DNA of 64,000 nt from positions 447,412-511,411 of the forward strand of contig CAWBJH010000002.1 in the NCBI GenBank assembly GCA_963789115.1, given 5' to 3'. Numbering within the stretch: position 1 is the stretch's first letter; each line of letters opens with the position of its first letter. Made by a program: the position numbers and the translations under genes. Origin of the DNA: an uncultured delta proteobacterium (GTDB lineage Bacteria > Desulfobacterota > Binatia > Binatales > Binataceae). The notes under the pieces were generated by a model that was given only the letters and a program-made list of their open reading frames with translations, was not told the DNA's origin and did not search any database. Shown piece by piece: positions 31,336 to 59,033 of this stretch.

Positions 31336-31377
31336 CGTTCCGTTCGAAGCTGCTTGCCGTAGACGCTGGAAAAGTGA

Positions 31378-32397
<1,020 letters not shown>

Positions 32398-41765: not shown

Positions 41766-41873
41766 CTAGTGCCGTTCCAACTGGTTGGTCCTAACGCCGG
41801 CAGCAGCGACGAGGAGCGCAAGGTGGAGAACTTGTCGCATAGTTTTAGGTCGAAAAAGTTGGAACGGGACTAG
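41766..41873. mobile_element. MITE-like element, family C, copy 1 (108 bp)
   Basis: CTAGTGCCGTTCCAAC..GTTGGAACGGGACTAG terminal inverted repeats. About 92% identical to 53864-53971. The terminal CTA at 41870-41872 is the nuoD stop. Confidence 0.85.
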
Positions 41874-43084: not shown

Positions 43085-43090
43085 GGCCGG

Positions 43091-43600: not shown

Positions 43601-43669
43601 TGACCCGGCATGCAGGATGCCCCTGATGCCCGATGGTCGGGTGTCACTGGCGCAAGTTTCCCAGCCGCA

Positions 43670-44038
43670 CTAGTCCCAGTCCAGCGCTCCGCGCTGCCAA
43701 GCGTAGATCAGACCGATCACCAGGATAACCGTGAAGATCAGCACTTCAACGAAACCAAACATCCCCAGCCTGCGCAACTCCACCGCCCAAGGATAGAGGA
43801 AGATGATCTCCACATCGAAGACCAGGAACAGAATGGCAGTCAGGTAAAACCGCACCGAGAAGCGGCCCCACGCGGACCCGGTCGGCGGATTCCCGCATTC
43901 GAAGGCTTCACCCTTCACCGGCGAATGGCGGCGCGGTCCGATTAGCTGATTGATGGTGACCAATACGCCGACGATCAGCCCCGCCACCACGAACGTAACC
44001 GCAATAGGAAACCAGGTCAGCATCGTGACTCCAAGCAC
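43670..44038 (-). CDS. nuoA: NADH-quinone oxidoreductase subunit A
   Basis: 122 aa with three TM helices, FECGN and FDVEIIFLYPWA. Confidence 0.9.
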   Translation of the reverse strand: MLGVTMLTWFPIAVTFVVAGLIVGVLVTINQLIGPRRHSPVKGEAFECGNPPTGSAWGRFSVRFYLTAILFLVFDVEIIFLYPWAVELRRLGMFGFVEVLIFTVILVIGLIYAWQRGALDWD

Positions 44039-44288
44039 GCTCGTGCGAAAACCGTTCTTATCCTGACACCACTATCGCATCAGGGCACCTTTTCCAATGG
44101 CCGGGTCCGCGGTCAACGCCTCAGCGGGGTCTCGCCGGTGAGCCGATTCTTAACTTAAAGCGCTGTAAAACATGGGCGAATCCGTCGTCTCGCATAAAAT
44201 ATATTGACTTCTAGCCTCAAGCCGTCTAATGCCAGATCTGAGGCTTGTGAGGCGGATTGGGTAAACTGTCATCGGGAGGAAGCATCCT

Positions 44289-45605
44289 ATGAGCTCGAGG
44301 CAACTTGTTGGTCTAAGCGTTGCTGCCGCAGTTGCACCCTTGATGGTCCTGATGGGAGCTGTGGCGCCTGCCAAGGCGCAGGTGAAACCCGGCGATTTCA
44401 TCAATCCCGACAACGCCGAGAAGGTCAAATCGCTGGTGTCGCCAGGCGTCTACCCGCGGGTCGTGCATGGCATGACCATGAAAATCGAGCCGACCGAGCG
44501 GATAGAGTGGCCGCCGCCCTATCGGGAAGCGACCGAGAAGTATTCGCCACAGGTCAGGCTGACCCCGGACGGCAGGAGTCTGGCGGGCTATGTGGCGGGC
44601 GAGCCGTTCCCGATCATCGATCCGAACGACCCGGAGGCCGGTGTTAAGATCATGTGGAACGAGGTGTTCCGGCCGATTTCCACCGATGACTACGACCTGC
44701 GATGGTTCGATTGCGAAAGCGCGTATTGGGGCCGCAACAAGAAGTTCTTCGAGATTACCGACATCCAGATCGGCCACTATGCCGGCTACAATGAGGTCGG
44801 ACGCACCGAGGTCGAGCCCCTTCCCATTGATCCCGACTTCAAGGTAACGGGCCGCTATTATTTGGCGCTGCTCTACCCGGTCCTCTCGCCGCAAGACTCT
44901 CGGGGAACCGGAATAGTGAAGTCAATGTACGCCGATCCCGCCAAAGAGGACGATATTTGGACCTACGAGCCGGGGACGCGGCGGGTGCGCAGGCTGAACT
45001 ACTCGATGATCGACAGCGCGACCGGGCCACAGGCCTACGATCCCAATCATTATTTTGGGTGGAGCGGCAAGCCCGAGGACTACGATTTCCGCTTCCTGGG
45101 CGACAAGACGATGCTTGCCGCGGCGGACGTGCATCACGGAGTTGACGTGCGCTGCCCGACCGACGGCGGCGCCAGCCACTGCCCGGATCCCTGGCAGTTG
45201 CGTCACCTTTACGTGATCGAGGCCAAGGAGCGCACGGCACGACTCTCCAGTCCGCTTTACAGCCGCGAGATCATCTACATCGACTCCGAAGCCGACTTTC
45301 CGATGTACGTCGACATGTATGACCGCAGTGGTCAGTTGTTCAATGGCTACGTCTCGTGGCTGAATTACTCGGATCGCGCGCAAAGCGATTCGCGAGTTGC
45401 GATATATCCCTTCAAGCGAGAGTTCGGGGTCGGGTCGTCGACTATCAATCTTCAGACGGGGTTCTCGACCGTCTGCTACCATCCGTCACCGGCGGCCCCG
45501 ACGCACGAGTCCTGGTTTATCAACATGGGAGCCGTGGACCGCAACTGGTTCACGGCCAACGCGATGCAGAAGGCCGCCTTGGGCGGTCATGCCGGTGGCG
45601 ACTAG
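44289..45605 (+). CDS. Secreted DUF1329 (LolA-like fold) family protein
   Basis: Signal peptide ..VAPAKAQ, then YVAGEPFPIIDPNDPEAGVKIMWN, which I recall as typical of DUF1329. Confidence 0.7.
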   Translation: MSSRQLVGLSVAAAVAPLMVLMGAVAPAKAQVKPGDFINPDNAEKVKSLVSPGVYPRVVHGMTMKIEPTERIEWPPPYREATEKYSPQVRLTPDGRSLAGYVAGEPFPIIDPNDPEAGVKIMWNEVFRPISTDDYDLRWFDCESAYWGRNKKFFEITDIQIGHYAGYNEVGRTEVEPLPIDPDFKVTGRYYLALLYPVLSPQDSRGTGIVKSMYADPAKEDDIWTYEPGTRRVRRLNYSMIDSATGPQAYDPNHYFGWSGKPEDYDFRFLGDKTMLAAADVHHGVDVRCPTDGGASHCPDPWQLRHLYVIEAKERTARLSSPLYSREIIYIDSEADFPMYVDMYDRSGQLFNGYVSWLNYSDRAQSDSRVAIYPFKREFGVGSSTINLQTGFSTVCYHPSPAAPTHESWFINMGAVDRNWFTANAMQKAALGGHAGGD

Positions 45606-45689
45606 GACATTGATGCCAGTGGACAAAGACTCCTTCACGACGCGGGCAATGGTCAGGGCGAGGACGTAAGCCGCGCGTGCTCTCGTGCA

Positions 45690-45724
45690 GCGACGGGCGC
45701 GCCCCTTAGGGGTGCGCCCGTCGC
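45690..45724 (+). terminator. Strong hairpin downstream of the DUF1329 gene; its stem contains the REP core GACGGGCG/CGCCCGTC
   Basis: 16-bp stem (one G-U pair) with loop TTA, followed by GCTTTG. Confidence 0.5.
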
Positions 45725-45807
45725 GCTTTGGCGGGTTGCGTCTGCCGAAAGGTGGGCGCAACGGCCATGACATGGCGGCGCCGCGCCCCCGCCGGTAAAA
45801 TGCCGCC

Positions 45808-46875
45808 ATGTCGGAGACATCGGCGCTGCCCGCGCGATGGCTTCAGCGGGCGATCGAGGCCGCCTGGCCGGGAGGCCGGGCCGCCTCTATCGCGCCGCTC
45901 AAGGGCGATGCGTCCACCCGCCGCTTCTGGCGGGTGCGGCTTGACTCCGGAGGCAAGCGCGCCCCTGCGACCGCGGTTGTAGTCGATCTCGGCCCCGACG
46001 ACGTCCCCTCGTATGCGCGGGCGCTCGGCCTCTATCCCGAACCGCTGCCCGAACCGCCCTACCTGAACGTCCAGCGCTTTCTCAAGTCGATCGAGGTGCC
46101 GGTGCCGGAGGTTTACTACAGCCGGCGCAGAGAACGCCTCCTGCTGGTCGAGGATGTCGGCGACCGCTCGCTTCACCAGGCCGCGCTGAGCGACCCAGCC
46201 CGCGCGCCCGACCTATACCGCGCCGCGGTCGAGGAGCTTTTGCGGATCCACGTCGAGGGAACCATCCGGCGCGATCCGCGATGTTACGCGTTTCGCATCC
46301 AGTACGACGGGCGCTTGCTTGGATGGGAACTCGATCAATTTGCGGAGTTCGGTCTGGCCGCGGTGGCACCGGATTCGAATCGCGAGGCAGTACTTCCCGA
46401 GCTCGCCGAGTTGGCCGCACGCCTGGACTGCATCCCGCGCGTTTTCTCCCATCGCGACTACCACGGCGGCAATCTGTTCGTGGACCAGGGCGCCGGGCGC
46501 GAGCTCCGGCTTCGCGTGCTCGACTTCCAGGACGCGCTGATGGCACCGCCGGCCCATGACTTGGCGCTGCTGATGACGACGCGCGACACCGCCCGCGTCG
46601 TGACGCCGGCGCTCGAAAACCGTCTGCTCGACTTCTATCTCGGCGGATTAAGCCGCCGCGCCGTGCCGGCCGACGACCGCGCCGTGTTTGTCGAGAGCTA
46701 CCGCCTGTGCGTCCTTCAGCACGCGCTCAAGATGATCGGCCGCTTCACATTGCTGGAGCGCGCCGGCAAGCCCGGTTACGCGGTCTATGTCCCGCACGCC
46801 GTGGCGCAGGCGCGCCGGATGCTCACGCAGGGCGATGACTTCCCGTCGCTCAGGCGGATGCTTGGAGTCGGATGA
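45808..46875 (+). CDS. Aminoglycoside-phosphotransferase-fold kinase (AmgK-like anomeric sugar kinase candidate)
   Basis: SHRDYHGGNLFV catalytic loop and VLDFQDA. Paired with a MurU-like nucleotidyltransferase. Confidence 0.65.
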   Translation: MSETSALPARWLQRAIEAAWPGGRAASIAPLKGDASTRRFWRVRLDSGGKRAPATAVVVDLGPDDVPSYARALGLYPEPLPEPPYLNVQRFLKSIEVPVPEVYYSRRRERLLLVEDVGDRSLHQAALSDPARAPDLYRAAVEELLRIHVEGTIRRDPRCYAFRIQYDGRLLGWELDQFAEFGLAAVAPDSNREAVLPELAELAARLDCIPRVFSHRDYHGGNLFVDQGAGRELRLRVLDFQDALMAPPAHDLALLMTTRDTARVVTPALENRLLDFYLGGLSRRAVPADDRAVFVESYRLCVLQHALKMIGRFTLLERAGKPGYAVYVPHAVAQARRMLTQGDDFPSLRRMLGVG

Positions 46876-46963
46876 TGAACGATGTAGCGCCGGCCTCCCC
46901 GCGCCGGTGGCGAGTGCCGGTTCCTTTCTCTCCATCGCTCAAGCGGTTTCTTGGAGTCGCGCG

Positions 46964-47734
46964 GTGAAAGCGCTCGTGCTGGCGGCGGGCAGAGGAGAGC
47001 GGCTCCGGCCGCTGACCGAAAAAACTCCCAAGGTAATGCTCGAGGTCGGCGGACGTCCGCTGATTCATTATCCGCTGATGCTTCTGCGGCGCGCCGGAAT
47101 CACCCGCGTGGCGATAAACGTTCATCACCTGGCCGCCAAAATCGAAAAGGCCCTTGCGCGCGGCGACGGCCTCGGGATCGAGATTACTTACGCGCCCGAG
47201 CCCGTGCTGTTCGGCACCGGCGGCCCGATTCTGGCGCTGCGCGGATATCTCGGCGATGAGTCGTTCGTGGTCGCCAACGCCGACACCATCCTCGACCTCG
47301 ACCTCGCAGCCATGATCCGGTTCCATCGCAGCCGTGGTGCGGTCGTGACGATCGCGCTTCATCGTCCGCCCAACCTCGACGATTACAGCCGGCTCGAAAT
47401 CGACGCCGAGGCCAAGCTCCGCCGCATCCGCCTGCTCAATCCGAAGGCCCCCGGCGGATTCGACGACTATCCGCGCGATCTCGACCCCGGCGTTACGCTG
47501 AGCGCCTACATGTACTGCGGGGTATGCGTATTGGAGCCAGCGGTGTTCGCGATGATGCCCTCGACGCCGCCGTTTTCGCTGATGGGCGACGTGATTGCGC
47601 CGATGGTGGCCAAAGGGATGCCAATCCTCGGCTACGTGCATCGCGGTTTTTTCCGCACCGTGGACGACCTCAAGAGCTACCAGGCTCTGCGCGCGGAGTT
47701 CGCCGCGAATCCGCCGCGCCTGGATTTCATCTGA
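46964..47734 (+). CDS. Nucleotidyltransferase (MurU-like sugar-1-phosphate uridylyltransferase candidate)
   Basis: GTG start, then KALVLAAGRGERLRPLTEKTPKVMLEVGGRPLI. Confidence 0.75.
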   Translation: MKALVLAAGRGERLRPLTEKTPKVMLEVGGRPLIHYPLMLLRRAGITRVAINVHHLAAKIEKALARGDGLGIEITYAPEPVLFGTGGPILALRGYLGDESFVVANADTILDLDLAAMIRFHRSRGAVVTIALHRPPNLDDYSRLEIDAEAKLRRIRLLNPKAPGGFDDYPRDLDPGVTLSAYMYCGVCVLEPAVFAMMPSTPPFSLMGDVIAPMVAKGMPILGYVHRGFFRTVDDLKSYQALRAEFAANPPRLDFI

Positions 47735-47843
47735 CGCCCCATGACGTCCCACCGCCGATCAGCGGACATTTCGATAGACGGCGGATCTCAACGCCGTGAG
47801 ATTCTCCGCGCTCGGAATGACTGGAACTTGACCAGTCTTTTTC

Positions 47844-47871
47844 TGAAGTGGCGGCGGGCGTCCCGCCCGCC
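47844..47871. repeat. Solo REP: TGAAGTGGCGGCGGGCG-TCC-CGCCCGCC
   Basis: Matches the 5' REP of the RAYT units, including the TGAAGTGG flank. One loop nucleotide differs. Confidence 0.75.
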
Positions 47872-47875
47872 GAGT

Positions 47876-48251
47876 CTAGTGTCCTGAGTGGGAAGTTCGT
47901 TGACAAACTCGCCGATGGACCTTCTTCAATGGCCTCTCCCAGATGGGAGAGGCCGACGGTCGCTGCGACCGTCGGGTGAGGGACCGCAGCGTCGCTGCGC
48001 CAGCAGCGACATTTGGTTGCGCCCGCGCTTTTTCGCCAGGGCTAACCACGCAACGGCCGGAGCGCTTCGATCCTCGGCGCCGCGCAGCCAAAATGCGGCG
48101 CCGCAAGGTCCCTCACCCCGGCCCTCTCCCAGCTTTGCAGGGAGAGGGCGAAGAAGAACTCTCGAGCTTTGGTGCGGAAGTTGCGCAAAGCTCTTGGCAA
48201 GCCCGGAGCGGGTTCAAAATTACTCCGCGAACTTCTAACTCAGGACACTAG
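47876..48251. mobile_element. MITE-like element, family B, copy 2 (376 bp)
   Basis: Perfect 14-bp terminal inverted repeats CTAGTGTCCTGAGT..ACTCAGGACACTAG. Confidence 0.85.
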
Positions 48252-48535
48252 CAGGGTGCGGAAAAACGCTTTCGAGACGAGACATTTCGCCGATGGCAGA
48301 AGCACCCTGCACGAAAAGTGGTTTTCACCGACACGCTCGCTCCGCTCGATCTTTCACCGCCATGCTCGCCCCGCTCGGTAGGCCGGCAAGCTCCCACCGG
48401 CTCGAACGAAGTGAGCATCGCGGTGAAAAAACCTCAATCTTCTCCCCCTGACCAGGGGGAGATAAACATGTCCTGCGCGGAGCCGAAGGAAGAGGGGGGA
48501 GCAGGCTGCGGAAACTTTTTCCGCAGCCTGCTGAG
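48248..48535. mobile_element. MITE-like element, family A, copy 3 (inverted relative to 6471-6705)
   Basis: Starts on the same CTAG that ends MITE B2. Ends with the AGCAGGCTGCGGAAA..TTTCCGCAGCCTGCT hairpin. Confidence 0.8.
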
Positions 48536-48599
48536 CCCGAAAACCTCAGTTCCGGGTTCCTAGGTTGAGAAACGGACGCACAAAAAGAACCCGTGACTT

Positions 48600-51269
48600 T
48601 TATGGCTTTAGCTGGTCCTTACGGCGCTTCTCCGTCTCCCTGCGGCGGTCGATGAGCTTTTTCGAAAACGCTCGCAACTCGTTGATGTCAGAGAATAATT
48701 CATCAGGCGCAGGGCGATCATGATGGAACGCTTTGGATTTGTCGTGACCCGTCATCCAGGTGCTGGCCTTCGACATGTGGAGATCGACCTGATTGATGTC
48801 GGAGTCTTCAATGTCGACCTCGATGAGCTTAAGTGTCTGCACGCTGTTCCGATATCGACAGACCACGTTGTAGAACAGGTCATCCTCAACGCAAGATTCC
48901 CAAGCTTCGCGCAACAGCCCGTAGACGCGGGCCGCCTGTTCGTTGTACTCGGTCATCTTATCCTGATACAGCGGCTTGATCTTGTGTACCAGTTCCTCAA
49001 GGTACTGCGCCCGTTGTTTGACCTTCATGGCATGCCACGGCGCTCCCTCGGTCGTTATGCCAGCCGATTTGCCGCCACGGCTCAGCGTATGCACGGTGAT
49101 AGCGACAGGCGTACCGGCCTTGGCCAGCGTCTCGCACGCGTCCTGAAGTTCCATCAGGAAGGCGATGTTGTGCGTGAAGATGATGACTTGCCGTGTCAGC
49201 CCTTCCTGCGCGAGCCGCGCGGCGATCCTCCCGGTGAACACATGGTCCAGCGAAGATACGGGATCGTCTAAGACAACAGCGTTCGCATGCGGAGCAAGCT
49301 TAAGCTCCGCCAAAAAGCCAGCGATCGCGATGACACGCGCTTCGCCTTCACTGAGGACTTGCGACGTATGTGCCCGGCCCAGCGCGTTGGCACCTACCAG
49401 CACCATCTCGTGCGCGGTCGCGCCAACGTCTCCGCTGGGCTTCACCGATATGGGCACGCGCGTTGCGCCCAACGCGGTTAATTCCCTTTTGAAAGCATTC
49501 AACAGCTCTGGGGTTAGGTTTTTGCGGATTAGAGTTGTGCCTTGCCGTGTGATCTCCTGCGTGCGAAGGGTGTCGGCGGCGCAACGAAGGTCGGCGTTGC
49601 GCTTGGCTTTCGCGACGAACGCACCGATATCGGCCTTCCTTAGGCTTAGCGCTTTGCGCGATTTGAGTTGCGCGACGTTGGCGAGGAGTTTCTTGTACTC
49701 CTCAGGCTTAGCGGCATTTGTGATGTCAGTTGCCTTTCGGGTGAGCGTCTGCGCAATTTCTCGCAGTGCCGTCTCAGGTGAGGCAGGCCAGGGTGTCAAT
49801 AATGCCACCTTCTCCAGAGCTTCGCCCTCCTTAAGTAACGCGAGTGCTGCGGTCTTTCGGGCGGCAACCCTTGTGTGATACGTGCGGAGGTCGTCTGCCG
49901 CCTTGGCGTCCAGACTGGCCAACTCATCGCAGATGGATTCGAGCGGCGGGCCTGACAAAGGTGATAAAGCTTCTATTTTTTCGCGGAGGAGCCTCAGCGC
50001 ATCGCGCCTGGCTGTGAGCACGGCGTTGGTGGCGTCCTCCATAAACTTCTTGAACCGAGCAAAACGGGCAACTGCTTCCTGGCCAAGTGGCTGCTGACAT
50101 AAAACGCAAACCGCATCGATTGTTTTTGGAAAGGGTTCGCCCGGATAGGCTATCTCCTCGGAATATTGTTTCGCCGCCTTGTAGAGAATTTCCCATTGAT
50201 TCGTTGACGCGACACCCGGCAGTGGTTCAGGCGCCTGCCGTTCGGCTACGGCAGCCGCGTGTGCGAGCCGGGCGGCGTTCAACTCGGTCAAAACCTTCGC
50301 GATCGCTTCGTTCGTGAGATCCGCGCACGCGGCAGCGAGTCCTGACGCCGTGCCGGCCGCACTGTTGACGCGCCCCTTGACCTTCTCCAGGCGGGCGACC
50401 TCTTGAGTCGCTTTCGTGGAATCTGACGTTCGCGCAAGCTCTTCATGGGTTGTGAGTTCTAGTTCATCCTGTGGAGTCCAGTTGGTCGCCGATTGGATGA
50501 CCGCGTCTTTAGTGGTCTCGGACAAAGATTCGAGAAAGGTCGCTGATGGTGTGCCTGCCACCACGGCTGAATCTTGGACCGGCACAAGCTCCGCCACCTC
50601 AGCTTCCAAATCAGTCTTGACCCTCAGCACTGTCTCAGCCGTCTTTTGGAAAACGTCGGCACCGTAGGGGAGGTAGGCGATTTCGTTGCGGTCATCTGTT
50701 ATAACCCGAGCGCAGCGGCCGTCGAATACGGTGATATTTGTTAAGACAGGGTCAGGGGCGGTGCCCTGGGTCCAGGTGATATCCTTTGCAGTGGCGTCCT
50801 GTTTGATTTTCAGTGTCGCGGTGGGCGTACCGGTCGGTACTGCTGCGAACACATTCGGAAGGATACGCTCGTCCTTGTCGCGGGCCTGGCAAGCCAGTTT
50901 CAGGATTCGAGAGTAGCCGGACTTGCCGGAGCCATTGTCGCCATACACCACCGTGACGCCACTCTCGGCGAACGGCTGCGTTTGGCCGGACTTAATAATG
51001 TTTACGTTGCGGACGTCGTCAATCGACAGGAGTTTCACCGCGACCGTCGTTGCCGGAACGCCGGAGAACTGGCCCGGAGCGGGAGGAAAAGGCTTCAGAT
51101 TGTCCGGAGGCGGTACGAGCTTCAAATCGGCTTTGGCGAGAGCCAATATCTCCGAGTAATCCTGAGCGGTGAGCGGCGGCTCCCCCGCTAGCAGGAGGCG
51201 CCGGACGGCATCGCCCTGCCAGGCGGGCAGCGTGTTAGCCCACGCGATCACGTCGTCAATGGTAGCCAT
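48600..51269 (-). CDS. RloC/PrrC-like ABC (AAA_13-type) ATPase with Rad50-like coiled-coil and CxxC insert
   Basis: 889 aa. Walker A GDNGSGKSG (50916-50942), CVLC (50097-50108), signature LSEGEARVIAIAGF, Walker B AVVLDDPVSSLD, H-loop IIFTHN, and a C-terminal ~190-aa domain with R-x3-E (LLREAWE). Confidence 0.75.
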   Translation of the reverse strand: MATIDDVIAWANTLPAWQGDAVRRLLLAGEPPLTAQDYSEILALAKADLKLVPPPDNLKPFPPAPGQFSGVPATTVAVKLLSIDDVRNVNIIKSGQTQPFAESGVTVVYGDNGSGKSGYSRILKLACQARDKDERILPNVFAAVPTGTPTATLKIKQDATAKDITWTQGTAPDPVLTNITVFDGRCARVITDDRNEIAYLPYGADVFQKTAETVLRVKTDLEAEVAELVPVQDSAVVAGTPSATFLESLSETTKDAVIQSATNWTPQDELELTTHEELARTSDSTKATQEVARLEKVKGRVNSAAGTASGLAAACADLTNEAIAKVLTELNAARLAHAAAVAERQAPEPLPGVASTNQWEILYKAAKQYSEEIAYPGEPFPKTIDAVCVLCQQPLGQEAVARFARFKKFMEDATNAVLTARRDALRLLREKIEALSPLSGPPLESICDELASLDAKAADDLRTYHTRVAARKTAALALLKEGEALEKVALLTPWPASPETALREIAQTLTRKATDITNAAKPEEYKKLLANVAQLKSRKALSLRKADIGAFVAKAKRNADLRCAADTLRTQEITRQGTTLIRKNLTPELLNAFKRELTALGATRVPISVKPSGDVGATAHEMVLVGANALGRAHTSQVLSEGEARVIAIAGFLAELKLAPHANAVVLDDPVSSLDHVFTGRIAARLAQEGLTRQVIIFTHNIAFLMELQDACETLAKAGTPVAITVHTLSRGGKSAGITTEGAPWHAMKVKQRAQYLEELVHKIKPLYQDKMTEYNEQAARVYGLLREAWESCVEDDLFYNVVCRYRNSVQTLKLIEVDIEDSDINQVDLHMSKASTWMTGHDKSKAFHHDRPAPDELFSDINELRAFSKKLIDRRRETEKRRKDQLKP

Positions 51270-51404
51270 TGAATTCTCCCGCAAGACGCACCTCGTCCGG
51301 CAGGCAAGAGGGAGTTGTGGGGTGGGTCATGCGTTGCTTCTAAGCCTCTGTTTTCGTCATCTGGTCAAGTTCGGGTCTAATCCAGCGTTGGTACAGCGTC
51401 CCCG

Positions 51405-52907
51405 TCAGCCCTCCCTGGAAACGTTTTCATCAGAATCTTCGGTCGGTGGCGTGGTCAGGACGCCCTCAACGAGCATCGATGGCATCGGTCTTTTGGTTTG
51501 GACGCCCAAACTGCGAATGCGTTCACCGATTGAGAGCGCATTGCCTTTCCCTGTCGAGAGCCGTTTCACCGCTTCGTTGTGAGCATTCAACGCACCTGTG
51601 ATCTTCTCGGCGACGCCGTTCAAGTCAATAAGGCTCGCGCTCACTTTGTCGCACAAGTCGCCCGCTAGGCCCGCAATCGCCTGCGCATTTTGGCCCTGTA
51701 GTTCATAGCGCCAAATCGACGCAACAGTGCGCATCGTCATAAGCAGCGTCGGAGGACCAACCAGCACGACACGACGATCCCACGCATACGTGAAAAGCTC
51801 GGGTTCCCTCGTCAGCGCTGCGGCCAGCGCACCCTCGATCGGTACAAACATCAAGACGCAATCGTGCGCCTGTAACTTTTCATTTTCCTGATAGCGCTTG
51901 CCGGCAAGTCCGTCGATATGACCTTTAACATCCCGCACAAACTGATCGGCGCAGGCTGCCCTCTCGGTTTCGTCCTTCGCTGCAATCACCCGCTCGTAAG
52001 ACGTAAGAGGGACCTTTGAATCGACGATCATCGTCCGCTCCTCTGGAAGCATGACAATGATGTCCGGTTTTTGGGCACCACCGGCCTCGCTCTTGAGGCC
52101 CAATCCGCGCCCTTGAGAGATGTATTCCCTGCCCTCCGTGAGGCCTGCCGCTTCGAGAATGCGTTCCAAGGCCAGTTCGCCCCACCGGCCGAGGAGCTGA
52201 GAATCGCCTCTCAGTGCCTTTGCGAGCCCGTCTGCTTGGTTACCGATCGCATAGCTCGTTTCGACGATATGTTTGATCTGCTCTTTGAGCGAGAGAACTT
52301 CACGGCTTTCTGCTTTGTAGGTGGTTTCGACCTTTTCCTGAAAATCCTTGATTCGTTCGCGTAGCGGATCGAGGATGGCGGCCAACGCCTTTTGTGAATT
52401 CTCTGAAAGCTCGGTGGCATTCGCTTTCAGGATGCGGTTTGCGATGTTCTCAAATTCCGCCGTCAATTCTTTCTGCAGATCGGCAAGCTGCGCCGTCTGC
52501 GTTTCGATTTTTTGCGTCAGAGCGCTCTCACGCTCCTTGAGCCGCGCAACTTCGGCTCCCGCCGCCTTCGCCTCACTCGCAGCCCCATCGCGCTGAGTCT
52601 CAAGGGCGCTGTTCTGCTTCGCTTGGTCTTCGATCTGTTTCGTGAGGCCGGCAACGCGCTCGGTTAGTCGTGCGACTTCCTCCCCTAAGCTCTTTGCTTC
52701 CTCAACAGCGGCCTTGTGTTCGACATCAAGTTGATTTGCCCGGCCCCGAAGCGCAATGCATTCCTGGTCGAGCCGAACAATTTCTGTTTGGGCCTTGGCC
52801 AGTACATCCCGGTCACTTTCGCGAACTGTCGGCCAGACATATCGTCCAAGCGCAATGCCTAAAGCGACGGCGAGAACACCAATGGTTATGAGAAGTGCAA
52901 CCTCCAT
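51405..52907 (-). CDS. rmuC: DNA recombination protein RmuC (N-terminal TM anchor, coiled coil, PD-(D/E)xK-type nuclease domain)
   Basis: 500 aa from MEVALLITIG. Contains RWGELALERILE and PDIIVMLPEERTMIVDSKVPL. RBS GGAGGA lies upstream of the ATG at 52907. Confidence 0.85.
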   Translation of the reverse strand: MEVALLITIGVLAVALGIALGRYVWPTVRESDRDVLAKAQTEIVRLDQECIALRGRANQLDVEHKAAVEEAKSLGEEVARLTERVAGLTKQIEDQAKQNSALETQRDGAASEAKAAGAEVARLKERESALTQKIETQTAQLADLQKELTAEFENIANRILKANATELSENSQKALAAILDPLRERIKDFQEKVETTYKAESREVLSLKEQIKHIVETSYAIGNQADGLAKALRGDSQLLGRWGELALERILEAAGLTEGREYISQGRGLGLKSEAGGAQKPDIIVMLPEERTMIVDSKVPLTSYERVIAAKDETERAACADQFVRDVKGHIDGLAGKRYQENEKLQAHDCVLMFVPIEGALAAALTREPELFTYAWDRRVVLVGPPTLLMTMRTVASIWRYELQGQNAQAIAGLAGDLCDKVSASLIDLNGVAEKITGALNAHNEAVKRLSTGKGNALSIGERIRSLGVQTKRPMPSMLVEGVLTTPPTEDSDENVSREG

Positions 52908-52951
52908 GTGGTTTCCTCCAATTGGTCTGCCCCCACCCCGACTTACCCGCA

Positions 52952-52957
52952 ATTATA
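52952..52957 (-). promoter_or_regulatory. Perfect TATAAT -10 hexamer, 45 nt upstream of the rmuC start
   Basis: Reverse complement of ATTATA at 52952-52957. The -35 region is poor. Confidence 0.3.
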
Positions 52958-53134
52958 AGCTGGAATTTCCGTTTTGACTCCTCGGTTCCTCGTTAACGCG
53001 ATTGCCAACCTTGAAGGAATCTGTTGATCGCTGCCTGCACGTCAGGCATTGACGCAAGCCGACGCTGCTCGATCGCCTCAACTTCGCCGGCCGAGCACAC
53101 GGGACGGCACCCCGCGCCCGGTACGTGGCGCTCA

Positions 53135-53854
53135 TCATCTGGCGAACAGGCGGCCGGCGGCGTAGGTTACTGCGGCGGCCGCGATTCCGGTGGCCATGCT
53201 CTCGAGCCCGCTCAACCACCATCGACGCGCCGTGATGATCGTCTTGGCGGCGCCGACTGCGAACAATGCCGCCGCGGCAGCGGCCGCGGACATCAGCACG
53301 CCCGTCGCCGGCATCATAAAGAAATAGGGCGAGAGCGGCACCAGCGCGCCGACCAGGTAGGCAAGACCGACGGTAAGCCCGGAACGGATCGGCGGGTCGA
53401 ACGATTCCTCGGAAAACCCCAGCTCCTCGCGCATCATCACGTTGCGCCATCGCTCCGGGTCGCCGGTGACATGCGCGACGATCTGATCGAGCAGCGCGCC
53501 GGTGAAGCCCTTGGCCCTGTAAATGGCACGGATTTCCTCGCGCTCGCGCTCGGGCCATCGTTCGATCTCGTCGCGTTCGCGCGCGACCTCGCTCTGGAAG
53601 AACTCGATCTGGGAACGCGCGGAGACCAGCGCCGCCAACCCCATCGAGACCGCCCCGCCGAGCATCTCCGCCAACCCCGCCATCACCACCACGCTGCTCG
53701 AGTTGAACGCGCCGGCGACGCCCGAGGTTACCGCGAACGAGGCCACCATCCCATCGTTCAGCCCCAGCATCAGGTCGCGGAGGCTGCGGCCGCCGGGCGC
53801 GTGGACCTGCTCGGTGTGATGGTCGTACTCGCGCTTGCGAATCGCGATCGCCAT
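53135..53854 (-). CDS. VIT1/CCC1-family iron/manganese transporter
   Basis: LRDLMLGLNDGMVASFAVTSGVAGA and C-terminal TM helices. Confidence 0.8.
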   Translation of the reverse strand: MAIAIRKREYDHHTEQVHAPGGRSLRDLMLGLNDGMVASFAVTSGVAGAFNSSSVVVMAGLAEMLGGAVSMGLAALVSARSQIEFFQSEVARERDEIERWPEREREEIRAIYRAKGFTGALLDQIVAHVTGDPERWRNVMMREELGFSEESFDPPIRSGLTVGLAYLVGALVPLSPYFFMMPATGVLMSAAAAAAALFAVGAAKTIITARRWWLSGLESMATGIAAAAVTYAAGRLFAR

Positions 53855-53863
53855 TGCGCGATC

Positions 53864-53971
53864 CTAGTGCCGTTCCAACTTGTTGGCCCTAACGCCGGCA
53901 GCCGCGACGAGGAGCGCAAGGTGGAGGACTTGTTGCATGGTTTCAGGCCGAAAAAGTTGGAACGGCACTAG
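53864..53971. mobile_element. MITE-like element, family C, copy 2 (108 bp)
   Basis: CTAGTGCCGTTCCAAC..GTTGGAACGGCACTAG. The terminal CTA at 53968-53970 is the stop codon of the LPS-kinase gene. Confidence 0.85.
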
Positions 53972-54801
53972 CCCCGGCGCACGTTGGATGAGGCGAGTGC
54001 GGCATCGCGCCGCGCATCGGCGTTCGCCGGCCGCCGCTGCCGGTAGCGGTCCTCACGCGCGCGACGTCTGAGCAGCGCGCCCACCAGCTCGCGAGCCCTT
54101 TGCCGCTCGGGCCGCCCGCCCAGGTAAGCATACAGGAAGCGCAGCCGCGCTGAACGGCTCAGAAAGCGCCCCACGCTGCGGTCCAGTTGGACCAGGTTAC
54201 GCTCGCGCGGGCGCCATCGGACACGCCGCGGACTGCGAAGGCGGTCGAGATCGACGAAGTAGATCCGGCACTCGCCCCCGGCCTCTTCCAGCATCAAATT
54301 GGTCTCTTGCAGGTCGGAGCTGAAAAGTCCCGCCTCGTGGAATCTGCGGACCTCCCGAGCGACTGCCTTGAGGATGCCTGCGCGCCATCGCGCCTCGGGC
54401 TCCGGCGAGCGCCCACGGATCTTGAGGAAGGCGCTGAAGGTCGCAGCGCGGAAAAGCGCCTCGCTCACGAGGTAGCTCGTGGAGATGCCGCCGGCGTCGA
54501 TCACTTCGGCTGCGGCGTAGGGCTCGGGCCGGCGAAAGCCGCGCGACTCGAGCAACTCGGCGCCTTGAAGCGAACGGCGGGCGCGTGAGCCTCGGACTCT
54601 CGCCCACAATCCGCGGCCCCGCGAGCCGGCCTCGAAGCGCTTGATAAAGGCGCGGGCGCCGTTTTCCAGCGCAACGAAGCCGGCGCGGGTGCGCCCCTCA
54701 TCCTTGACCGGCTCGAACCCCGCGCCACGTATCAGCGCCTCGGCACGCATCGCCGCTTCCGCCCAGACCGGCGATTGCGCGTAGATCACCCGCGTACGCA
54801 T
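53968..54801 (-). CDS. Lipopolysaccharide kinase (Kdo/WaaP) family protein
   Basis: FIKRF.., FHEAGLFSSDLQETNLML, then YFVDLD. Confidence 0.7.
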   Translation of the reverse strand: MRTRVIYAQSPVWAEAAMRAEALIRGAGFEPVKDEGRTRAGFVALENGARAFIKRFEAGSRGRGLWARVRGSRARRSLQGAELLESRGFRRPEPYAAAEVIDAGGISTSYLVSEALFRAATFSAFLKIRGRSPEPEARWRAGILKAVAREVRRFHEAGLFSSDLQETNLMLEEAGGECRIYFVDLDRLRSPRRVRWRPRERNLVQLDRSVGRFLSRSARLRFLYAYLGGRPERQRARELVGALLRRRAREDRYRQRRPANADARRDAALASSNVRRG

Positions 54802-54851
54802 CCGGCGAACAGGGTAGCGAATCCGCGACGGCGCGGGCTACGCGCGCCCGG

Positions 54852-55400
54852 CTACTTCGACTCCGGCGTGCCCTCGGGATGCATCATCCCGGGGTGCATC
54901 CCGTGATGCATCCCGTGTTGCATCATTATGCCGATCATCCTGGAATGGACCACGAGCTGGCCGCCTATGTGCGCCGGATGGAGCTGGCAGAAGTACGGGA
55001 ACACACCGGGTTTGTCGGCGGTAAAGTGGATCACCACCGGCGTGCCGCGGGTCACGAGGGTGACGATGTTATAGTCGGGAATCGTAAAGCCGTGCTGATT
55101 CTCCGGACCCGGCACCTGGTTCTTGAGGGTCAACTTCACCTTGTCACCCTCATCGACGATGATCGTGCTGGGCAGCCAGAACTTGGTTTCGCCGATCAGC
55201 ACGGAGACCAGCGTGAACTTCTTCACTGCGGCGGCCGGTGCGGCAGGTGCGGCCTCCTTGGGCGCAGGGCTCGCCTGCGCAGCCGAGCCGGCCTCAGCCG
55301 CGGGCGGGGCCTGCTGGGCGCGGGCATAGGAAGCGACCAGGAGAAACGCGATTCCTCCCGCCGCCGCCAGTAATCCAGCTCTCCTCATCATCGCTCGCAT
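54852..55400 (-). CDS. Secreted cupredoxin-like copper protein with a His/Met-rich tail
   Basis: Signal peptide ..ASYARAQ. Candidate type-1 Cu ligands in FPYFCQLHPAHIGGQL. Tail reads MMQHGMHHGMHPGMMHPE. Confidence 0.65.
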   Translation of the reverse strand: MRAMMRRAGLLAAAGGIAFLLVASYARAQQAPPAAEAGSAAQASPAPKEAAPAAPAAAVKKFTLVSVLIGETKFWLPSTIIVDEGDKVKLTLKNQVPGPENQHGFTIPDYNIVTLVTRGTPVVIHFTADKPGVFPYFCQLHPAHIGGQLVVHSRMIGIMMQHGMHHGMHPGMMHPEGTPESK

Positions 55401-55443
55401 GTTCCTCTCCCTCCGTTTTGGAAATGGTGTTTTCGGGCCGTCT

Positions 55444-56463
55444 TCAGCCGTTGAACTGTTTGGTCAGCCTGCGCCATTCGGCGTCGTCGACTCCCGCGCG
55501 ATACGGGATATAGAACCCGACCCGGTCCAGCAATCCCTCGTAGCGCGCCTTGACCTTGGCGCCGATCTCGTCGAAGGTGCCCGCGACCGCGTAGACGTCG
55601 AGCATCTCGTCCGTGATCTCGTTAGCCATCCCGGTCCAGTCGCCCTTGGCGGCCTTTTCGTTGAGCCGCTGCGAGACCTCGCCAAAGCCGTGGGTATCGA
55701 GCACGACCTTGTAGGTGCGCGTCGAGGCATAGAAGGCGATCTGCTGGCGCACGCCGGCCTTGGCCCGCTCGATCTCGTCCTTGCTCTTGCCGACGATTGC
55801 GAAAGCGGTAGTCGCGATCGAGAAATCCTTGCGGCTGCGTCCGGACTTTTTGAGTCCGATTTCGACGTTGGGGATCACGAACTCGCGCAGGTACTTGGGC
55901 GAGTTGAAAGGATGGGCGTGCAGGCCCTCGCACAGCTCGCCCGCGAGCCTGCAGATGTATTTGTTCACGCCCGCGATATAGATGGGGATGTTCGCATAGT
56001 CGTGGCGCTGCGGCGTGAAGAAGGGCGTCATCAGCGAGAAGTTGTAGTACTTGCCCTCGTACTTGAGCCGCGTGCCGCCCTCGGCCCAGCATTTGAAGAT
56101 TGCGCGTAGCGATTGGATGTACTCGCGCAGGCGCGGCACCGGCGCCTCCCACTTGACGCTGAAGCGCCGCTCGATGTGTCCCTTGACCTGTGTGCCGAGC
56201 CCCAGGATGAAGCGTCCCTGCGAGAGCCCGGCCAGGTCCCACGCCGTATGGGCGATCGCCATGGGGCTGCGCGCGAACGCGATGGCGACCGCAGTGCCCA
56301 TCTTGACCCGCCGGGTGTGCTCCGCGATCAGCGCGAGCGGCAGGAAGCCGTCGTTGCCGGCCTCGGGCGTCCAGATCGCATCGAAACCGGCCTCTTCCGC
56401 CGCCTTGGCGGCGGCGGGAACCTCGCGCAAATCGCGCGCCATCAAACCCGTGTCGAGTTTCAT
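55444..56463 (-). CDS. LLM-class (luciferase-like) F420-dependent oxidoreductase
   Basis: 339 aa. AEEAGFDAIWTPE and FILGLGTQVKGHIERRF are typical of the LLM family. Confidence 0.75.
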   Translation of the reverse strand: MKLDTGLMARDLREVPAAAKAAEEAGFDAIWTPEAGNDGFLPLALIAEHTRRVKMGTAVAIAFARSPMAIAHTAWDLAGLSQGRFILGLGTQVKGHIERRFSVKWEAPVPRLREYIQSLRAIFKCWAEGGTRLKYEGKYYNFSLMTPFFTPQRHDYANIPIYIAGVNKYICRLAGELCEGLHAHPFNSPKYLREFVIPNVEIGLKKSGRSRKDFSIATTAFAIVGKSKDEIERAKAGVRQQIAFYASTRTYKVVLDTHGFGEVSQRLNEKAAKGDWTGMANEITDEMLDVYAVAGTFDEIGAKVKARYEGLLDRVGFYIPYRAGVDDAEWRRLTKQFNG

Positions 56464-56494
56464 TTTCGCTGCTCCCCGCTCCGGTTTGCGGACT

Positions 56495-56560
56495 CTGGCA
56501 GGCTGCGGAAAAAATTCCCACGGTCTGCACCTCGAAAATCGTTTTTCCGCACCCTGCCAG
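56495..56560. repeat. Miniature family-A-like palindromic element (66 bp)
   Basis: CTGGCAGGCTGCGGAAAA..TTTTCCGCACCCTGCCAG. Bounded by CTGG/CCAG instead of CTAG. Confidence 0.7.
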
Positions 56561-56695
56561 GGCGAGCGAATCCTAACAGTTTCGGGAGCGGGTTAGAATC
56601 GCGCCGTCGCCTCGAACAGCCCTGCTCGCATCGTCAGCTTGGCTCGGATCCGACACGCACTCAGCGGCCGGGCCTCCGCGCGGCATTCACAGCAT

Positions 56696-57486
56696 CTACA
56701 GAATCCGGAGCAGGCGGGCCGGATAGTCGGTGATTATGCCGTCGACCCCCAAGTCGAGCATCTCGCGCATCTGCGCGACTGCATTCACGGTCCAGACGTG
56801 GACCTCCACGCCGAGGCGATGGGCCCAATCGACGATTTCGGGGTGACCAGCCGCCACGATTGGTATTCCGGCGGCACCTGCAGCGCGTCGCCCGGCGCAC
56901 GCCAGGTATCGTCGTGCCGCGCCATCGCCTGCATGAAGGCGGCGACCTCCAGCGAGCAAAAGTTGGTCGGAATTCCGGGCGCCAGCGCCCGAACCTCGTC
57001 GAGGGGCTCCTGATGCTCGCTGGCGACCATCACGCGGCGGCGCATCCCGGCCCGATCGATTGCTGCGAGCATCGCGCGGACCAGGCTCGGACGCTTCTGC
57101 TTGACCTCGACGACGAAAAACGCGCGCCGAAAAGCCGACAGCACCGCTTCGAGGGTCGGGATGCCGACTCCGCGGTTGCGGAACGGATAGGCGCCGTCGC
57201 CCGGGGTGAAGTTGTATCCCGCGTCGGCGGCTGCCACTTCCACCCAAGTCAGCTCCGAAATTTCGGCGTCGCGCCCGGCGGTGCGTTTCAGGTTCGGGTC
57301 ATGGCAGACGACGACTGTCCCGTCGCGCGTCATGTGGACATCGAGCTCCGCATAGGGCGCGCCATCCTTGACCGCGGCGTGAAAGGCCTCGATGGTGTTT
57401 TCGGGATAGCTGCCGCTGGCGCCGCGATGGGCGATCGCGCGCGGGGGCGGCGGCGAGAAGAATTCGCTATCGAGCGTCGCGCGCAT
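56696..57486 (-). pseudogene. Glycerophosphodiester phosphodiesterase, frame broken by a 1-nt homopolymer indel (possibly an assembly error)
   Basis: N-terminal frame has IAHRGASGSYPENT..ELDVHMTRDGTVVVCHD up to ..WRLVTP. The other frame continues EIVDWAHRLGVEVHVWTVN..GVDGIITDYP. The junction is at the G4 run 56840-56843. Confidence 0.85.
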
Positions 57487-57545
57487 CAGGAGAATCCTCC
57501 CCCGAAGCGCCGGTTTTCATCAGGGCGATACGGAGGCCGACTGGT

Positions 57546-59033
57546 TCAGAGCGCGCCGCCGCCAGCCGGCGCCGTCGAGTATGGCCCTACGGCGCGCGAA
57601 ATGCCGTGTGCCCGGCGCGGGCTATGCTTCAGCCCGGCGTGGTAGAGCACCCCAGACCGCGAGCCCGACGGCTTGCGCTGACCGGTGAACAGATTGCGGG
57701 TGTCCAGGTCGGGCAGCCGGGCCAGCACGGTCTCATAGCGATGCCTGATATGGTCGAACAGCGCGCGCATCCGGGGCGACACTTCGTGGTTCGCTCCCAG
57801 TTTCTCATTGAGCGGGTTGACGTACCGGCCCTCGCGGAGCAGCGCGAAATGAAGGTGTGGGCCCGTAGAAAGCCCGCTCGACCCCACCCATCCGATTACT
57901 TGACCGACCCGCACGTAGCTACCGGGTTTCAGGCTAGGACTGATCTGGGAGAGATGGCCGTAGATGCTGACCAAGTTGTGCTCGTGCTCGATTCGAACGC
58001 ACTTGCCAAGCTCGCCGGCCCAGTCGGAATACTGGACTCGCCCGTCGGCTATCGACTTCACCGGCGTTCCATACTGTGCAACCAAGTCGACGCCAACATG
58101 CGGGCGATAGCGATGGAGAATCGGATGGTAACGTTCGGCCGCAAATCCAGAGGAGATGTATTCGAACGGCACCGGGAAGCGTAAGACCTGCGGACCGAGC
58201 GGTTTGCCGTGCTCATCGTACAGGTGCGACCGGCCATGCTCATCCCGGAATGCGAAGGCATTGAAGGCCCGGTTGCCGACCCGGACCTGCGCCGCTTCGA
58301 GGTCGCCGACCGCTTGATGGGTCCCGTCGCGGCTGACTTCTTCGGTATAGACAAGCTTCAGAGCCGCGCCAGGCGGAAGGTCTCCGAGCGCGCGACGGTC
58401 GGCGAACGCATCCTCAAGGGTCTCTACGATCGGCTTGGGGATGTCGCGGCGAGCGACCTCGTCGTCGAAGCTGTCGCGAATTGCGAAATCCACCGTGACC
58501 GGGCGCACCACGTACTGGATCGGCCGCTGCGCAACCAGAACTACCCCGTTGTCATAGCTCTGCTCGACCACCGCCGTGCGTTCATTGAGGTCGTACCTGA
58601 ACCCGCGAAGGTCGCCAGTCTCAGGATCTCTGTAGAGGGTGATCAGATGGCCGTTCTTGAAAATGTCGTCGCGGGTGGCGTTTTCGAAGATCCGCTCCCA
58701 TCGGCGGGCATCGTTACGCGACAGGCCGGCATCTTCGAGCAAGCCCGTAACGGCGGCCGAATGATCGAGTGTGAAGCGGATTATGATTGGATCGGGTGCC
58801 GGCTCAGCGGAGTCGTCGGCATCGGATTCGGCAAAGTCGCGGCAAGGGGCGCCGCCCTCCATGTAATAGCCCGCTTGAGCAACGGCGGCCGGGGAAGGGT
58901 TACCGTCAGCGCGGAGCTGGTTCTCGCATCCCAAAACGAAGAGCCGCAGCGCAACTCCCGTCGCAATAACCGCCGCCGTCAACCCAACGGCGACTCGGGA
59001 CAAACACACCCCCGTGCTGCTCTCCCCCTGCAT
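57546..59033 (-). CDS. M23-family peptidoglycan DD-metalloendopeptidase
   Basis: HVGVDLVAQYGTPV and GSSGLSTGPHLHFAL. Confidence 0.9.
   Translation of the reverse strand: MQGESSTGVCLSRVAVGLTAAVIATGVALRLFVLGCENQLRADGNPSPAAVAQAGYYMEGGAPCRDFAESDADDSAEPAPDPIIIRFTLDHSAAVTGLLEDAGLSRNDARRWERIFENATRDDIFKNGHLITLYRDPETGDLRGFRYDLNERTAVVEQSYDNGVVLVAQRPIQYVVRPVTVDFAIRDSFDDEVARRDIPKPIVETLEDAFADRRALGDLPPGAALKLVYTEEVSRDGTHQAVGDLEAAQVRVGNRAFNAFAFRDEHGRSHLYDEHGKPLGPQVLRFPVPFEYISSGFAAERYHPILHRYRPHVGVDLVAQYGTPVKSIADGRVQYSDWAGELGKCVRIEHEHNLVSIYGHLSQISPSLKPGSYVRVGQVIGWVGSSGLSTGPHLHFALLREGRYVNPLNEKLGANHEVSPRMRALFDHIRHRYETVLARLPDLDTRNLFTGQRKPSGSRSGVLYHAGLKHSPRRAHGISRAVGPYSTAPAGGGAL

Follow-up and report, generated by a model that had tools for sequence, protein, structure and literature searches.

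Within a 64-kb window of the genome of an uncultured bacterium of the Binataceae (the whole stretch that was analysed, positions 447,412 to 511,411 of contig CAWBJH010000002.1), two adjacent minus-strand genes encode a nuclease of the RmuC family and a coiled-coil ATPase with RloC-like motifs. From their sequences and contexts, the two genes probably constitute an undescribed two-part anti-phage module. We hold with moderate confidence that they are a horizontally acquired two-gene defence cassette, which would act in two layers in the style of PrrC and RloC.

Composition and genomic position of the two genes

Both genes had been predicted in a first-pass annotation of the DNA, and open reading frame (ORF) and Pfam analysis confirmed their coordinates and strand. 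Their ATG starts agreed with the conserved N-termini of homologues, and each was preceded by a Shine-Dalgarno-like sequence (GGAGG before the RmuC ATG). The annotation had also described the block as compositionally foreign on the strength of four hand counts of guanine-plus-cytosine (GC) content (62, 51, 50, and 70%), all of which proved exact when recomputed. Positions 48600–52952 had a GC content of 57.6%, the minimum among all 4.35-kb segments of the 64 kb (median 64.7%, 5th percentile 60.0%). The ORFs of the window had a mean GC content at third codon positions (GC3) of 0.76; the ATPase gene had a GC3 of 0.67 and rmuC one of 0.61, and rmuC had the lowest GC and GC3 of them all. The dip in GC was modest, at about 7 points, yet it was the extreme of the window and coincided exactly with the two genes. 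The right edge was as sharp as annotated, with a GC content of 0.66–0.69 directly right of position 53000 in the VIT1 gene. At the left edge, where two repeat elements had been reported, 850 bp of non-coding DNA indeed held two inverted-repeat elements. The genes further left, encoding an NTP transferase, an APH-type kinase, DUF1329, and nuoA/C/D, were ordinary core-type genes.

VIT1 and its right-hand neighbours matched loci of Candidatus Binataceae, and 80 such related loci were compared with the window. The REP-like repeats might have pointed to a Pseudomonas host, a reading that was rejected because the flanking genes belong to Candidatus Binataceae. Neither RmuC nor the ATPase was found within 10 kb after VIT1 in any of the 80, so that both genes are accessory at this locus, and rmuC was not syntenic with core genes in these relatives; such synteny was among the observations that the first-pass annotation had named as refuting its proposal. 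The left-flank genes of the window (the nuo genes, DUF1329, APH kinase, and NTP transferase) were likewise found within 10 kb after VIT1 in none of the 80 loci. Gene order to the right of VIT1 (53135) was largely kept in these loci and that on the left was not; since VIT1 marks this break in synteny, the islet sits at a rearrangement junction. Among the 80 loci, Kdo lay beside VIT1 in nearly all and a luciferase-like gene lay upstream in most, and the cupredoxin gene and a 495-aa ORF (57546–59033) were each detected in about half. Both exact proteins also occurred together on one contig of assembly GCA_049279895.1.

Conservation of the cassette as a unit

Close orthologues of the ATPase (66–85% identity) were found in Parcubacteria, Nitrospiria, Omnitrophota, Verrucomicrobiota, Acidobacteria, Smithella, and others, and such scatter over very distant phyla is a signature of horizontal transfer. 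In about 7 of the 18 evaluable close-orthologue loci, the gene immediately upstream on the same strand encoded RmuC; these were the window, L001 (Parcubacteria), L005 (Omnitrophota), and the metagenome loci L114, L115, L221, and L226/227, with gaps of 9–136 bp between the two genes. The RmuCs fell into lineage A (window, L114, L115, and L221; 70–77% identical internally) and lineage B (L001, L005, and L226; 73–91%). The two lineages were 24–30% identical to each other, and the ATPases attached to them were 66–79% identical.

By blastn, the DNA shared by the window and L221 was confined to 48591–52921, starting 14 bp upstream of the ATG of RmuC and ending 9 bp beyond the stop codon of the ATPase gene. 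The similarity to L114 in tblastx was confined to 48601–52916, and L001 and L005 had only the two-gene pair in common. Because the loci resemble one another in the two genes only, the block is a conserved, mobile unit, which supports the earlier proposal that both genes were acquired together. The GC content of the cassette (0.46–0.58) differed from that of the flanks (0.36–0.55) in every host examined.

The alignment of the window with L221 (3222–7682) was a mosaic, with an identity of 0.91–0.97 over the initial 700 bp or so of the ATPase gene, 0.71–0.85 over the coiled-coil middle of the ATPase, and an indel-rich stretch in the coiled coil of RmuC. The window RmuC was also nearer to the RmuC of L012, a locus without the ATPase (87%), than to that of L221 (77%). 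Because of this mosaic and the closer L012 protein, recombination within and between cassettes is suggested. In L226/L227 (1–4964), the lineage-B cassette directly followed genes for a terminase large subunit, a sigma-70-like protein, and a ParB–N6_N4 methylase fusion, and this copy may reside on a prophage or phage-like element.

No ATPase homologue was found in the GenBank phage collection. Plasmids carried 116 full-length homologues with 28–33% identity; among the plasmids listed, none of the 15 bearing the ATPase was also among those bearing RmuC or DUF2130. DUF2130 genes were common on rhizobial plasmids, and that of Mesorhizobium pMLa (L231, 268052–269347) lay near a relaxase, ParA, DUF736, and a zincin-like, possibly ArdC-like, gene, which hints at a separate role of DUF2130 in plasmid establishment. 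The ATPase was not a neighbour of DUF2130 on pMLa or on Granulicella pACIX903 (L232). No cultured example of the pair was found, because neither the plasmid listings nor the two inspected plasmids showed pairing.

Properties of the RmuC protein

The RmuC protein matched Pfam PF02646 with an E-value of 2.6e-86 over residues 174–472 and consisted of a predicted N-terminal transmembrane helix, a coiled coil, and a PD-(D/E)XK nuclease domain. The earlier description of the protein as membrane-anchored is reasonable in view of the hydrophobic helix at residues 3–21 (Kyte-Doolittle 19-residue mean of 2.65), which was kept in all ATPase-linked RmuCs. In a comparison of 11 RmuCs, including every ATPase-linked one, Asp296 and Lys298 were invariant and Glu244 nearly so, and the catalytic residues (WGE, P[D/E], and DxK) were intact in all of the ATPase-linked proteins. 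The sole PADLOC match of RmuC type was to the RT-associated RmuC model.

It could be supposed that rmuC is the ordinary, recombination-limiting housekeeping gene of the host and that the ATPase gene was merely inserted beside it, given that genes for RmuC are common in bacteria and encode proteins with this layout of transmembrane helix, coiled coil, and nuclease domain, and that the 64 kb of the host genome seen neither confirm nor exclude a second rmuC. This explanation is already contradicted by the composition of the gene, the lowest in GC and GC3 of the window, and by its absence at the locus in the 80 relatives. It is also contradicted by the nearest homologues (74–87% identity), which came from Acidobacteria and Alphaproteobacteria in unrelated contexts with no flanks in common with the window, and by the single block of 86%-identical DNA that rmuC forms with the ATPase gene in L221. 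Finally, the protein scored 260.5 bits against the NCBIfam equivalog model of E. coli RmuC (NF007686, rmuC/yigN), far below the cutoff of 810. We therefore regard a housekeeping origin as very improbable.

RmuCs of lineage A also occurred next to other genes. In L018, RmuC-A was followed 3 bp later by a canonical full-length AAA_13 protein (E-value 2.9e-132) that matched the PDC-S06 model PDLC04894; four distant relatives of this AAA_13 protein had no RmuC, so that the L018 pairing is a single case so far. The end of RmuC in L021 overlapped the start of a SIR2–HerA pair, RmuC in L012 lay between an SMC-like ATPase and PD-(D/E)XK/HerA genes, and others of the RmuC-A homologues without the ATPase had metabolic neighbours. 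As read from the two RmuC lineages and from L018, the partners are combinatorial, different RmuC and AAA_13 lineages having been re-paired.

Motifs and predicted structure of the ATPase

The ATPase matched AAA_13 (6e-19), SMC_N, and AAA_21 in Pfam and the PADLOC model PDLC04891 (PDC-S06) essentially end to end (E-value 1.1e-189, 630.8 bits, residues 1–876 on profile positions 1–857 of 858). Motif conservation was assessed with 23 homologues down to 38% identity. The Walker A motif, the ABC signature, the Walker B/D-loop, and the H-loop were invariant in this set, as were both cysteines of a CxxC motif.

The AlphaFold model of the ATPase (predicted local distance difference test score, pLDDT, 80.6) comprised an ABC head and a long coiled coil, together with two helical domains, a small one at the N-terminus and one at the C-terminus. 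Long antiparallel helices spanned residues 205–600, and the CxxC motif was placed in the loop between helices 357–374 and 397–433. The best fold matches of the model were the heads of SMC, Rad50, JetC, and LmuB. A sequence search of the PDB with the family profile matched only the ABC signature/Walker B region of Rad50, SMC, and ABC transporters. The N-terminal domain was formed by three helices (residues 1–50; 51120–51269) with invariant Trp10, Trp17, Asp20, Arg23, and Arg24, and Pfam gave no match for this domain in isolation. To our knowledge, the described RloC proteins have no counterpart of it.

In the C-terminal domain (pLDDT 87.8), Arg787, Glu791, Glu795, Arg805, and His842 were invariant in the 23 homologues. 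The spacing Arg787-X3-Glu791-X50-His842 fits the RloC triad Arg-X3-Glu-X36-52-His, with Gly in place of the frequent Ser before the His. The assignment of the domain as a putative effector rests on this motif. Pfam returned no match for the isolated domain.

Gene neighbourhoods in the wider ATPase family

The wider family was sampled as 93 loci with full-length ATPase homologues (27–81% identity); these were the best 80 matches plus about 20 loci from pattern scans and do not represent a census. Neighbouring genes were grouped with hidden Markov models built from neighbour clusters, with Pfam labels assigned to representatives, and the labelled families were RmuC, DUF2130, HsdM/S/R, N6_N4 methylase, ResIII, C5 methylase, integrases, and recombinases. 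DUF2130, which combines a Zn-ribbon with a coiled coil and a D...ExK motif, has been classed in the PD-(D/E)XK superfamily (PMC3424549). All 10 RmuC or DUF2130 neighbours were immediately adjacent to the ATPase gene (positions ±1), against none among the 583 genes at positions ±2 to 8 (Fisher p = 2.7e-7). Eight of the 10 lay directly upstream of the ATPase gene, 7 of these on the same strand with gaps of 9–53 bp. Neither RmuC nor DUF2130 was present in 1.39 Mb of control Binataceae loci. In a neighbour-joining tree, the nuclease-linked ATPases occupied at least eight places, with solitary ATPases and ones linked to restriction-modification genes in between.

The first-pass annotation had suggested testing the ATPase for enrichment near known defence genes. 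In about 20 of the 93 loci, the ATPase gene had type I or III restriction-modification genes no more than 3 genes away. Several of the DUF2130–ATPase pairs had hsdM or type III mod/res genes next to them. The genes around the cassette, or around ATPases that stood alone, further included Gabija-like genes, Mrr, GmrSD, MmeI, a reverse transcriptase, HEPN_AbiV, BrnT/BrnA, integrases, and transposases, and terminase and ParB-methylase genes were near the cassette in one case. HEPN_AbiV was found beside solitary close orthologues in two unrelated contexts (L222, 3324–4172; L224/L225, 3662–4756), in one of them upstream and on the same strand, in the other downstream and convergent, and may be another recurrent partner of the ATPase.

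The variable identity of the partners raises the question of whether the window pair represents two autonomous defence genes, a Shield-like RmuC and a PDC-S06/RloC-like ATPase, brought together by the clustering of defence genes and having no functional interplay. Each gene does occur alone in defence-island contexts, and PADLOC lists PDC-S06 as a single-gene candidate. Loose clustering, however, predicts a distribution other than the confinement of all nuclease neighbours to ±1, and it would have to account for a nuclease directly upstream in 8 of 10 loci, with 7 on the same strand. Restriction-modification genes are far commoner in genomes than RmuC or DUF2130. Even so, RmuC or DUF2130 was adjacent to the ATPase in 10 loci, against 6 each for HsdM and N6_N4 methylase. 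The sharp-edged two-gene units in two RmuC lineages and the independent pairing of RmuC-A with a canonical AAA_13 protein in L018 also oppose this explanation. Because strict ±1 adjacency, conservation at the level of the cassette, and the re-pairing of RmuC with AAA_13 proteins argue against mere co-location, we consider it improbable that the two genes are independent.

Comparison with known defence systems

RloC proteins are defined by ABC motifs, a coiled-coil/CXXC insert, the triad Arg-X3-Glu-X36-52-His, and a length of 658–897 aa (Davidov & Kaufmann 2008, PMC2610378). The window ATPase carried Walker A, signature, Walker B/D-loop, and switch His motifs and a coiled-coil insert with a central CXXC, for which zinc binding is putative; together with Arg787-X3-Glu791-X50-His842 and a length of 889 aa, these features place it within the RloC definition at the motif level. 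The RloC-like half of the label given to the ATPase in the first-pass annotation, RloC/PrrC-like, was therefore upheld at that level. RloC resembles Rad50 and has been described as both sensing double-strand breaks and acting as the effector (PMC3874168), and its nuclease has been classed as HEPN (PMC3710099). Only the RloC proteins of G. kaustophilus and A. baylyi are known to have a tRNase activity that excises the wobble nucleotide and that DNA ends and ATP hydrolysis switch on (Klaiman et al. 2012 and 2013, PMC3458546 and PMC3874168). The ATPase resembles RloC in the ABC head split by a CxxC coiled coil, the C-terminal triad, the size, the occasional linkage to type I/III restriction-modification genes, and the patchy, horizontally spread distribution. 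It differs from RloC in a C-terminus that has no detectable sequence similarity or significant fold similarity to those of canonical AAA_13, PrrC, and RloC proteins, in the extra conserved three-helix domain at the N-terminus, in the Gly before the His, and in the recurrent presence of RmuC or DUF2130 as the immediate neighbour, which was not described in the RloC literature found.

PrrC has 341–416 aa, lacks a coiled coil and zinc hook, and is invariably located in a type Ic hsd locus, whereas the window ATPase is more than twice as long, has a coiled coil, and neighbours RmuC. No hsd genes were present among the ORFs scanned at 40391–59033, where the neighbours of the ATPase gene were RmuC and non-coding repeats. 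The arrangement resembles PrrC-EcoprrI, in which a type Ic restriction-modification enzyme guards the anticodon nuclease, in that a candidate suicide effector linked to an ABC ATPase is encoded beside a restriction function directed at DNA, which may also control it.

ShdA of the Shield system is a membrane RmuC-domain DNase with experimentally shown anti-phage activity, reported only in Pseudomonas, and its partners are the M15-peptidase-like ShdB and the domain-less ShdC-E, with no ATPase (PMC10270631). ShdA-like genes have also been found in type I restriction-modification loci (PMC11090510). The cassette is similar to Shield in having a membrane-anchored RmuC-domain protein first, an accessory gene downstream, and a location in defence islands. 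The ShdA layout of an N-terminal transmembrane helix and an RmuC domain was present in the window RmuC; canonical RmuC shares this layout, which is therefore not discriminating. The two systems are set apart by their partner genes, since Shield has ShdB, ShdC, ShdD plus ShdE, or no partner, and the downstream partner here is an ABC/SMC-type ATPase.

The ATPase corresponds to PADLOC PDC-S06 over its whole length, and differs from that catalogued, unvalidated single-gene candidate in having a nuclease partner; DUF2130 has no PADLOC model. The first-pass annotation had called the pair uncharacterised. Full-text literature searches combining RmuC with RloC, with AAA_13, or with ATPase and defence yielded no description of the pair, and the term stands to that extent; it is too strong for the ATPase, which is already a PADLOC candidate. 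In the portions of the literature retrieved, PDC-S06 appeared solely as a PADLOC annotation.

As in SbcCD/Rad50–Mre11, Lamassu (LmuB–LmuA), and Wadjet (JetC–JetD), a coiled-coil ABC ATPase is combined with a separately encoded nuclease, and the putative zinc hook is shared with Rad50/SbcC. The nuclease here is the PD-(D/E)XK protein RmuC, in place of the Mre11/SbcD phosphoesterase, Cap4-like LmuA, or Toprim JetD, and no domain of Mre11/SbcD type was found in RmuC or the ATPase. In contrast to SMC-like systems, the ATPase carries its own putative effector domain, and there are no kleisin or KITE-like subunits. The extra C-terminal domain of the ATPase is lacking in Rad50 and SbcC (PMC2610378).

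Proposed mechanism and its weighing

We infer an anti-phage function, sensing of DNA ends, RNase activity, and physical or regulatory coupling of the two proteins. The cassette, presumably lacking a promoter of its own, would have been inserted at the synteny break next to VIT1. RmuC, by analogy with ShdA, would act as a membrane-anchored PD-(D/E)XK DNase that attacks invading DNA, a cutting role that DUF2130 or a restriction enzyme would take elsewhere. The zinc-hook ATPase would sense the DNA ends made by the neighbouring nuclease, or the disabling of that nuclease by a phage. By coupling this sensing to ATP hydrolysis, it would switch on the toxic triad domain at its C-terminus, which would most likely be an RNase acting on tRNA. 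The resulting shut-off of translation would form a second, abortive-infection line of defence.

Several observations weigh against this two-layer cassette. Homology of the C-terminal domain to the anticodon-nuclease domains of PrrC/RloC or to HEPN domains was not demonstrated and is putative: the Pfam AAA_13 alignment ended at profile position 586 of 713, the PADLOC PrrC model matched the ATPase only at residues 663–708 in the Walker B region, and hhalign detected no similarity between the domain profile and the canonical AAA_13 protein of L018 (probability 0.1%). The top Foldseek match of the domain was the HEPN protein 2hsb with a non-significant E-value of 0.26 (TM-score 0.38–0.42), the other matches were non-significant helical bundles, and an Rx4-6H motif was absent before His842. 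RmuC or DUF2130 was missing beside about 60% of close ATPase orthologues and about 90% of the wider family, and close lineage-A RmuC homologues were often without this ATPase; each gene can therefore stand alone. The neighbour calls came from our own ORF picking on metagenome contigs, many of which were short. In the comparison of RmuC with DUF2130, hhalign aligned coiled-coil segments only (probability 8.6%, from shallow alignments), so that no direct link between the two families was shown, and their common PD-(D/E)XK class rests on PMC3424549 and on the motifs.

The presence of ATPase orthologues beside rmuC elsewhere, on which the first-pass annotation had made its proposal depend, was observed in the six further loci given above. 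The pairing proved facultative, however, at about 40% of close orthologues and about 10% of the family. This bears on an alternative in which the two proteins form an integrated sensor-nuclease machine: the ATPase would bind or clamp DNA and directly recruit or activate RmuC, in the manner of SbcC with SbcD, Rad50 with Mre11, LmuB with LmuA, or JetABC with JetD, and its C-terminal domain would be a partner-binding or regulatory module instead of an RNase. The tight, operon-like adjacency with the nuclease upstream and gaps of 9–53 bp in most loci, the long coiled coils in both proteins, the conservation of the cassette as a unit, the lack of proven RNase homology in the C-terminal domain, and the fold matches to Rad50, SMC, JetC, and LmuB, which all operate together with a nuclease, are in accord with such a machine. 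The absence of RmuC and DUF2130 from most family members, by contrast, means that the ATPase must act alone or with restriction-modification enzymes, and facultative pairing therefore argues against an obligate complex. Furthermore, the invariant Arg-X3-Glu-X50-His looks catalytic and matches the RloC triad, and RmuC proteins of the ShdA type defend alone (PMC10270631). An integrated machine is accordingly unlikely in our estimation, if somewhat less so than two independent genes, and the two-layer cassette is the reading that we prefer.

Coordinates of the cassette and other features of the window

The features of the cassette and of its left boundary are given in Table 1. The spacer between the two genes contained no terminator-like site, and a promoter and terminator scan was uninformative. 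The spacer was about 90% identical to the 136-bp spacer of L221, in line with the flanking coding DNA, and because it was no more conserved than the surrounding coding DNA, no regulatory element is claimed in it. Direct repeats flanking the cassette were not found, and the 64-kb window contained no tRNA genes.

Table 1. Positions of the two genes, their motifs and domains, and the adjacent repeat elements in the window (ATPase and RmuC residue numbers refer to the respective protein)
Feature	Position	Strand	Remarks
Shared two-gene cassette	48591..52921	-	blastn against metagenome contig L221, 86% DNA identity
RmuC gene	51405..52907	-	500 aa
RmuC N-terminal hydrophobic helix, putative membrane anchor	52836..52907	-	residues 1-24
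RmuC nuclease motifs WGE (E244), PD (D282), D296-S-K298	52008..52190	-	comparison of 11 RmuCs
Intergenic spacer	51270..51404	-	135 bp, GGGAGA before ATPase ATG
ATPase gene	48600..51269	-	889 aa
Walker A VYGDNGSGKSG (K116)	50916..50948	-	invariant in 23 homologues
CxxC (C388, C391), putative zinc hook	50091..50114	-	both cysteines invariant; between coiled-coil arms
ABC signature LSEGE (639-643), Walker B/D-loop VVLDDPVSSLD (665-675), H-loop H700	49164..49361	-	invariant columns
C-terminal helical-bundle domain, putative effector (anticodon-nuclease/HEPN-like)	48603..49046	-	residues 742-889
Element resembling a miniature inverted-repeat transposable element (MITE)	47876..48251	.	24-nt terminal inverted repeats; left boundary region
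Second inverted-repeat-bounded element	48250..48532	.	includes perfect 15-bp hairpin 48500-48532

The terminal-repeat motif of the MITE-like element matched again at 33473 and, inverted, at 33994. The 14-nt terminal repeat CTAGTGTCCTGAGT thus bounds two elements of the window (33473–33994 and 47876–48251), with 4 matches against 0.14 expected, which suggests that this Binataceae genome has a small family of MITEs. An Rfam match below threshold, to the whalefall-1 small RNA, lay at 47930–47983 (26.9 bits against a gathering score of 37, E-value 0.0011) inside the MITE-like element and is probably merely its GC-rich hairpin.

Two other stretches of low GC were noted. Positions 24257–32397 (GC about 0.60) encoded a glycosyltransferase, several methyltransferases (FkbM-type and others), and an NAD-dependent epimerase, and looked like a variable surface-glycan biosynthesis cluster; the ORFs at 24257–25135, 25300–26109, and 28598–30520 had no Pfam match. 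A gene pair at 14038–15793 encoded a radical-SAM protein with DUF3463, which we take to be HpnH-like and hopanoid-associated, next to a TetR regulator.

Implications

RloC, a riddle since 2008, is known as a Rad50-like, break-responsive protein with no known partner DNase, and restriction enzymes acting in trans have only been speculated upon (PMC2610378, PMC3874168). RmuC, for its part, has been without a clear role, apart from the phage defence by ShdA in Pseudomonas. A mobile RmuC–ATPase cassette joins these two puzzles. At about 4.3 kb, it also makes a compact construct in which the point mutants to choose are obvious and in which a coupling of DNA cutting with break-sensing suicide could be tested. 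For annotation, the pairing suggests that some of what is listed as the single-gene candidate PDC-S06 should be re-annotated as systems of two genes and that DUF2130 should be counted among defence genes. As a tentative and rather doubtful generalization, nucleases of the RmuC and DUF2130 types may be the dedicated DNase partners of a large RloC-like ATPase branch, the counterparts of Mre11/SbcD. In this class, breaks made by the nuclease in invading DNA, or inhibition of the nuclease by a phage, would be read by the zinc-hook ATPase and lead to translation shut-off, restriction-modification enzymes would serve as alternative partners, and the family would represent a new class of two-component systems spread horizontally across phyla.

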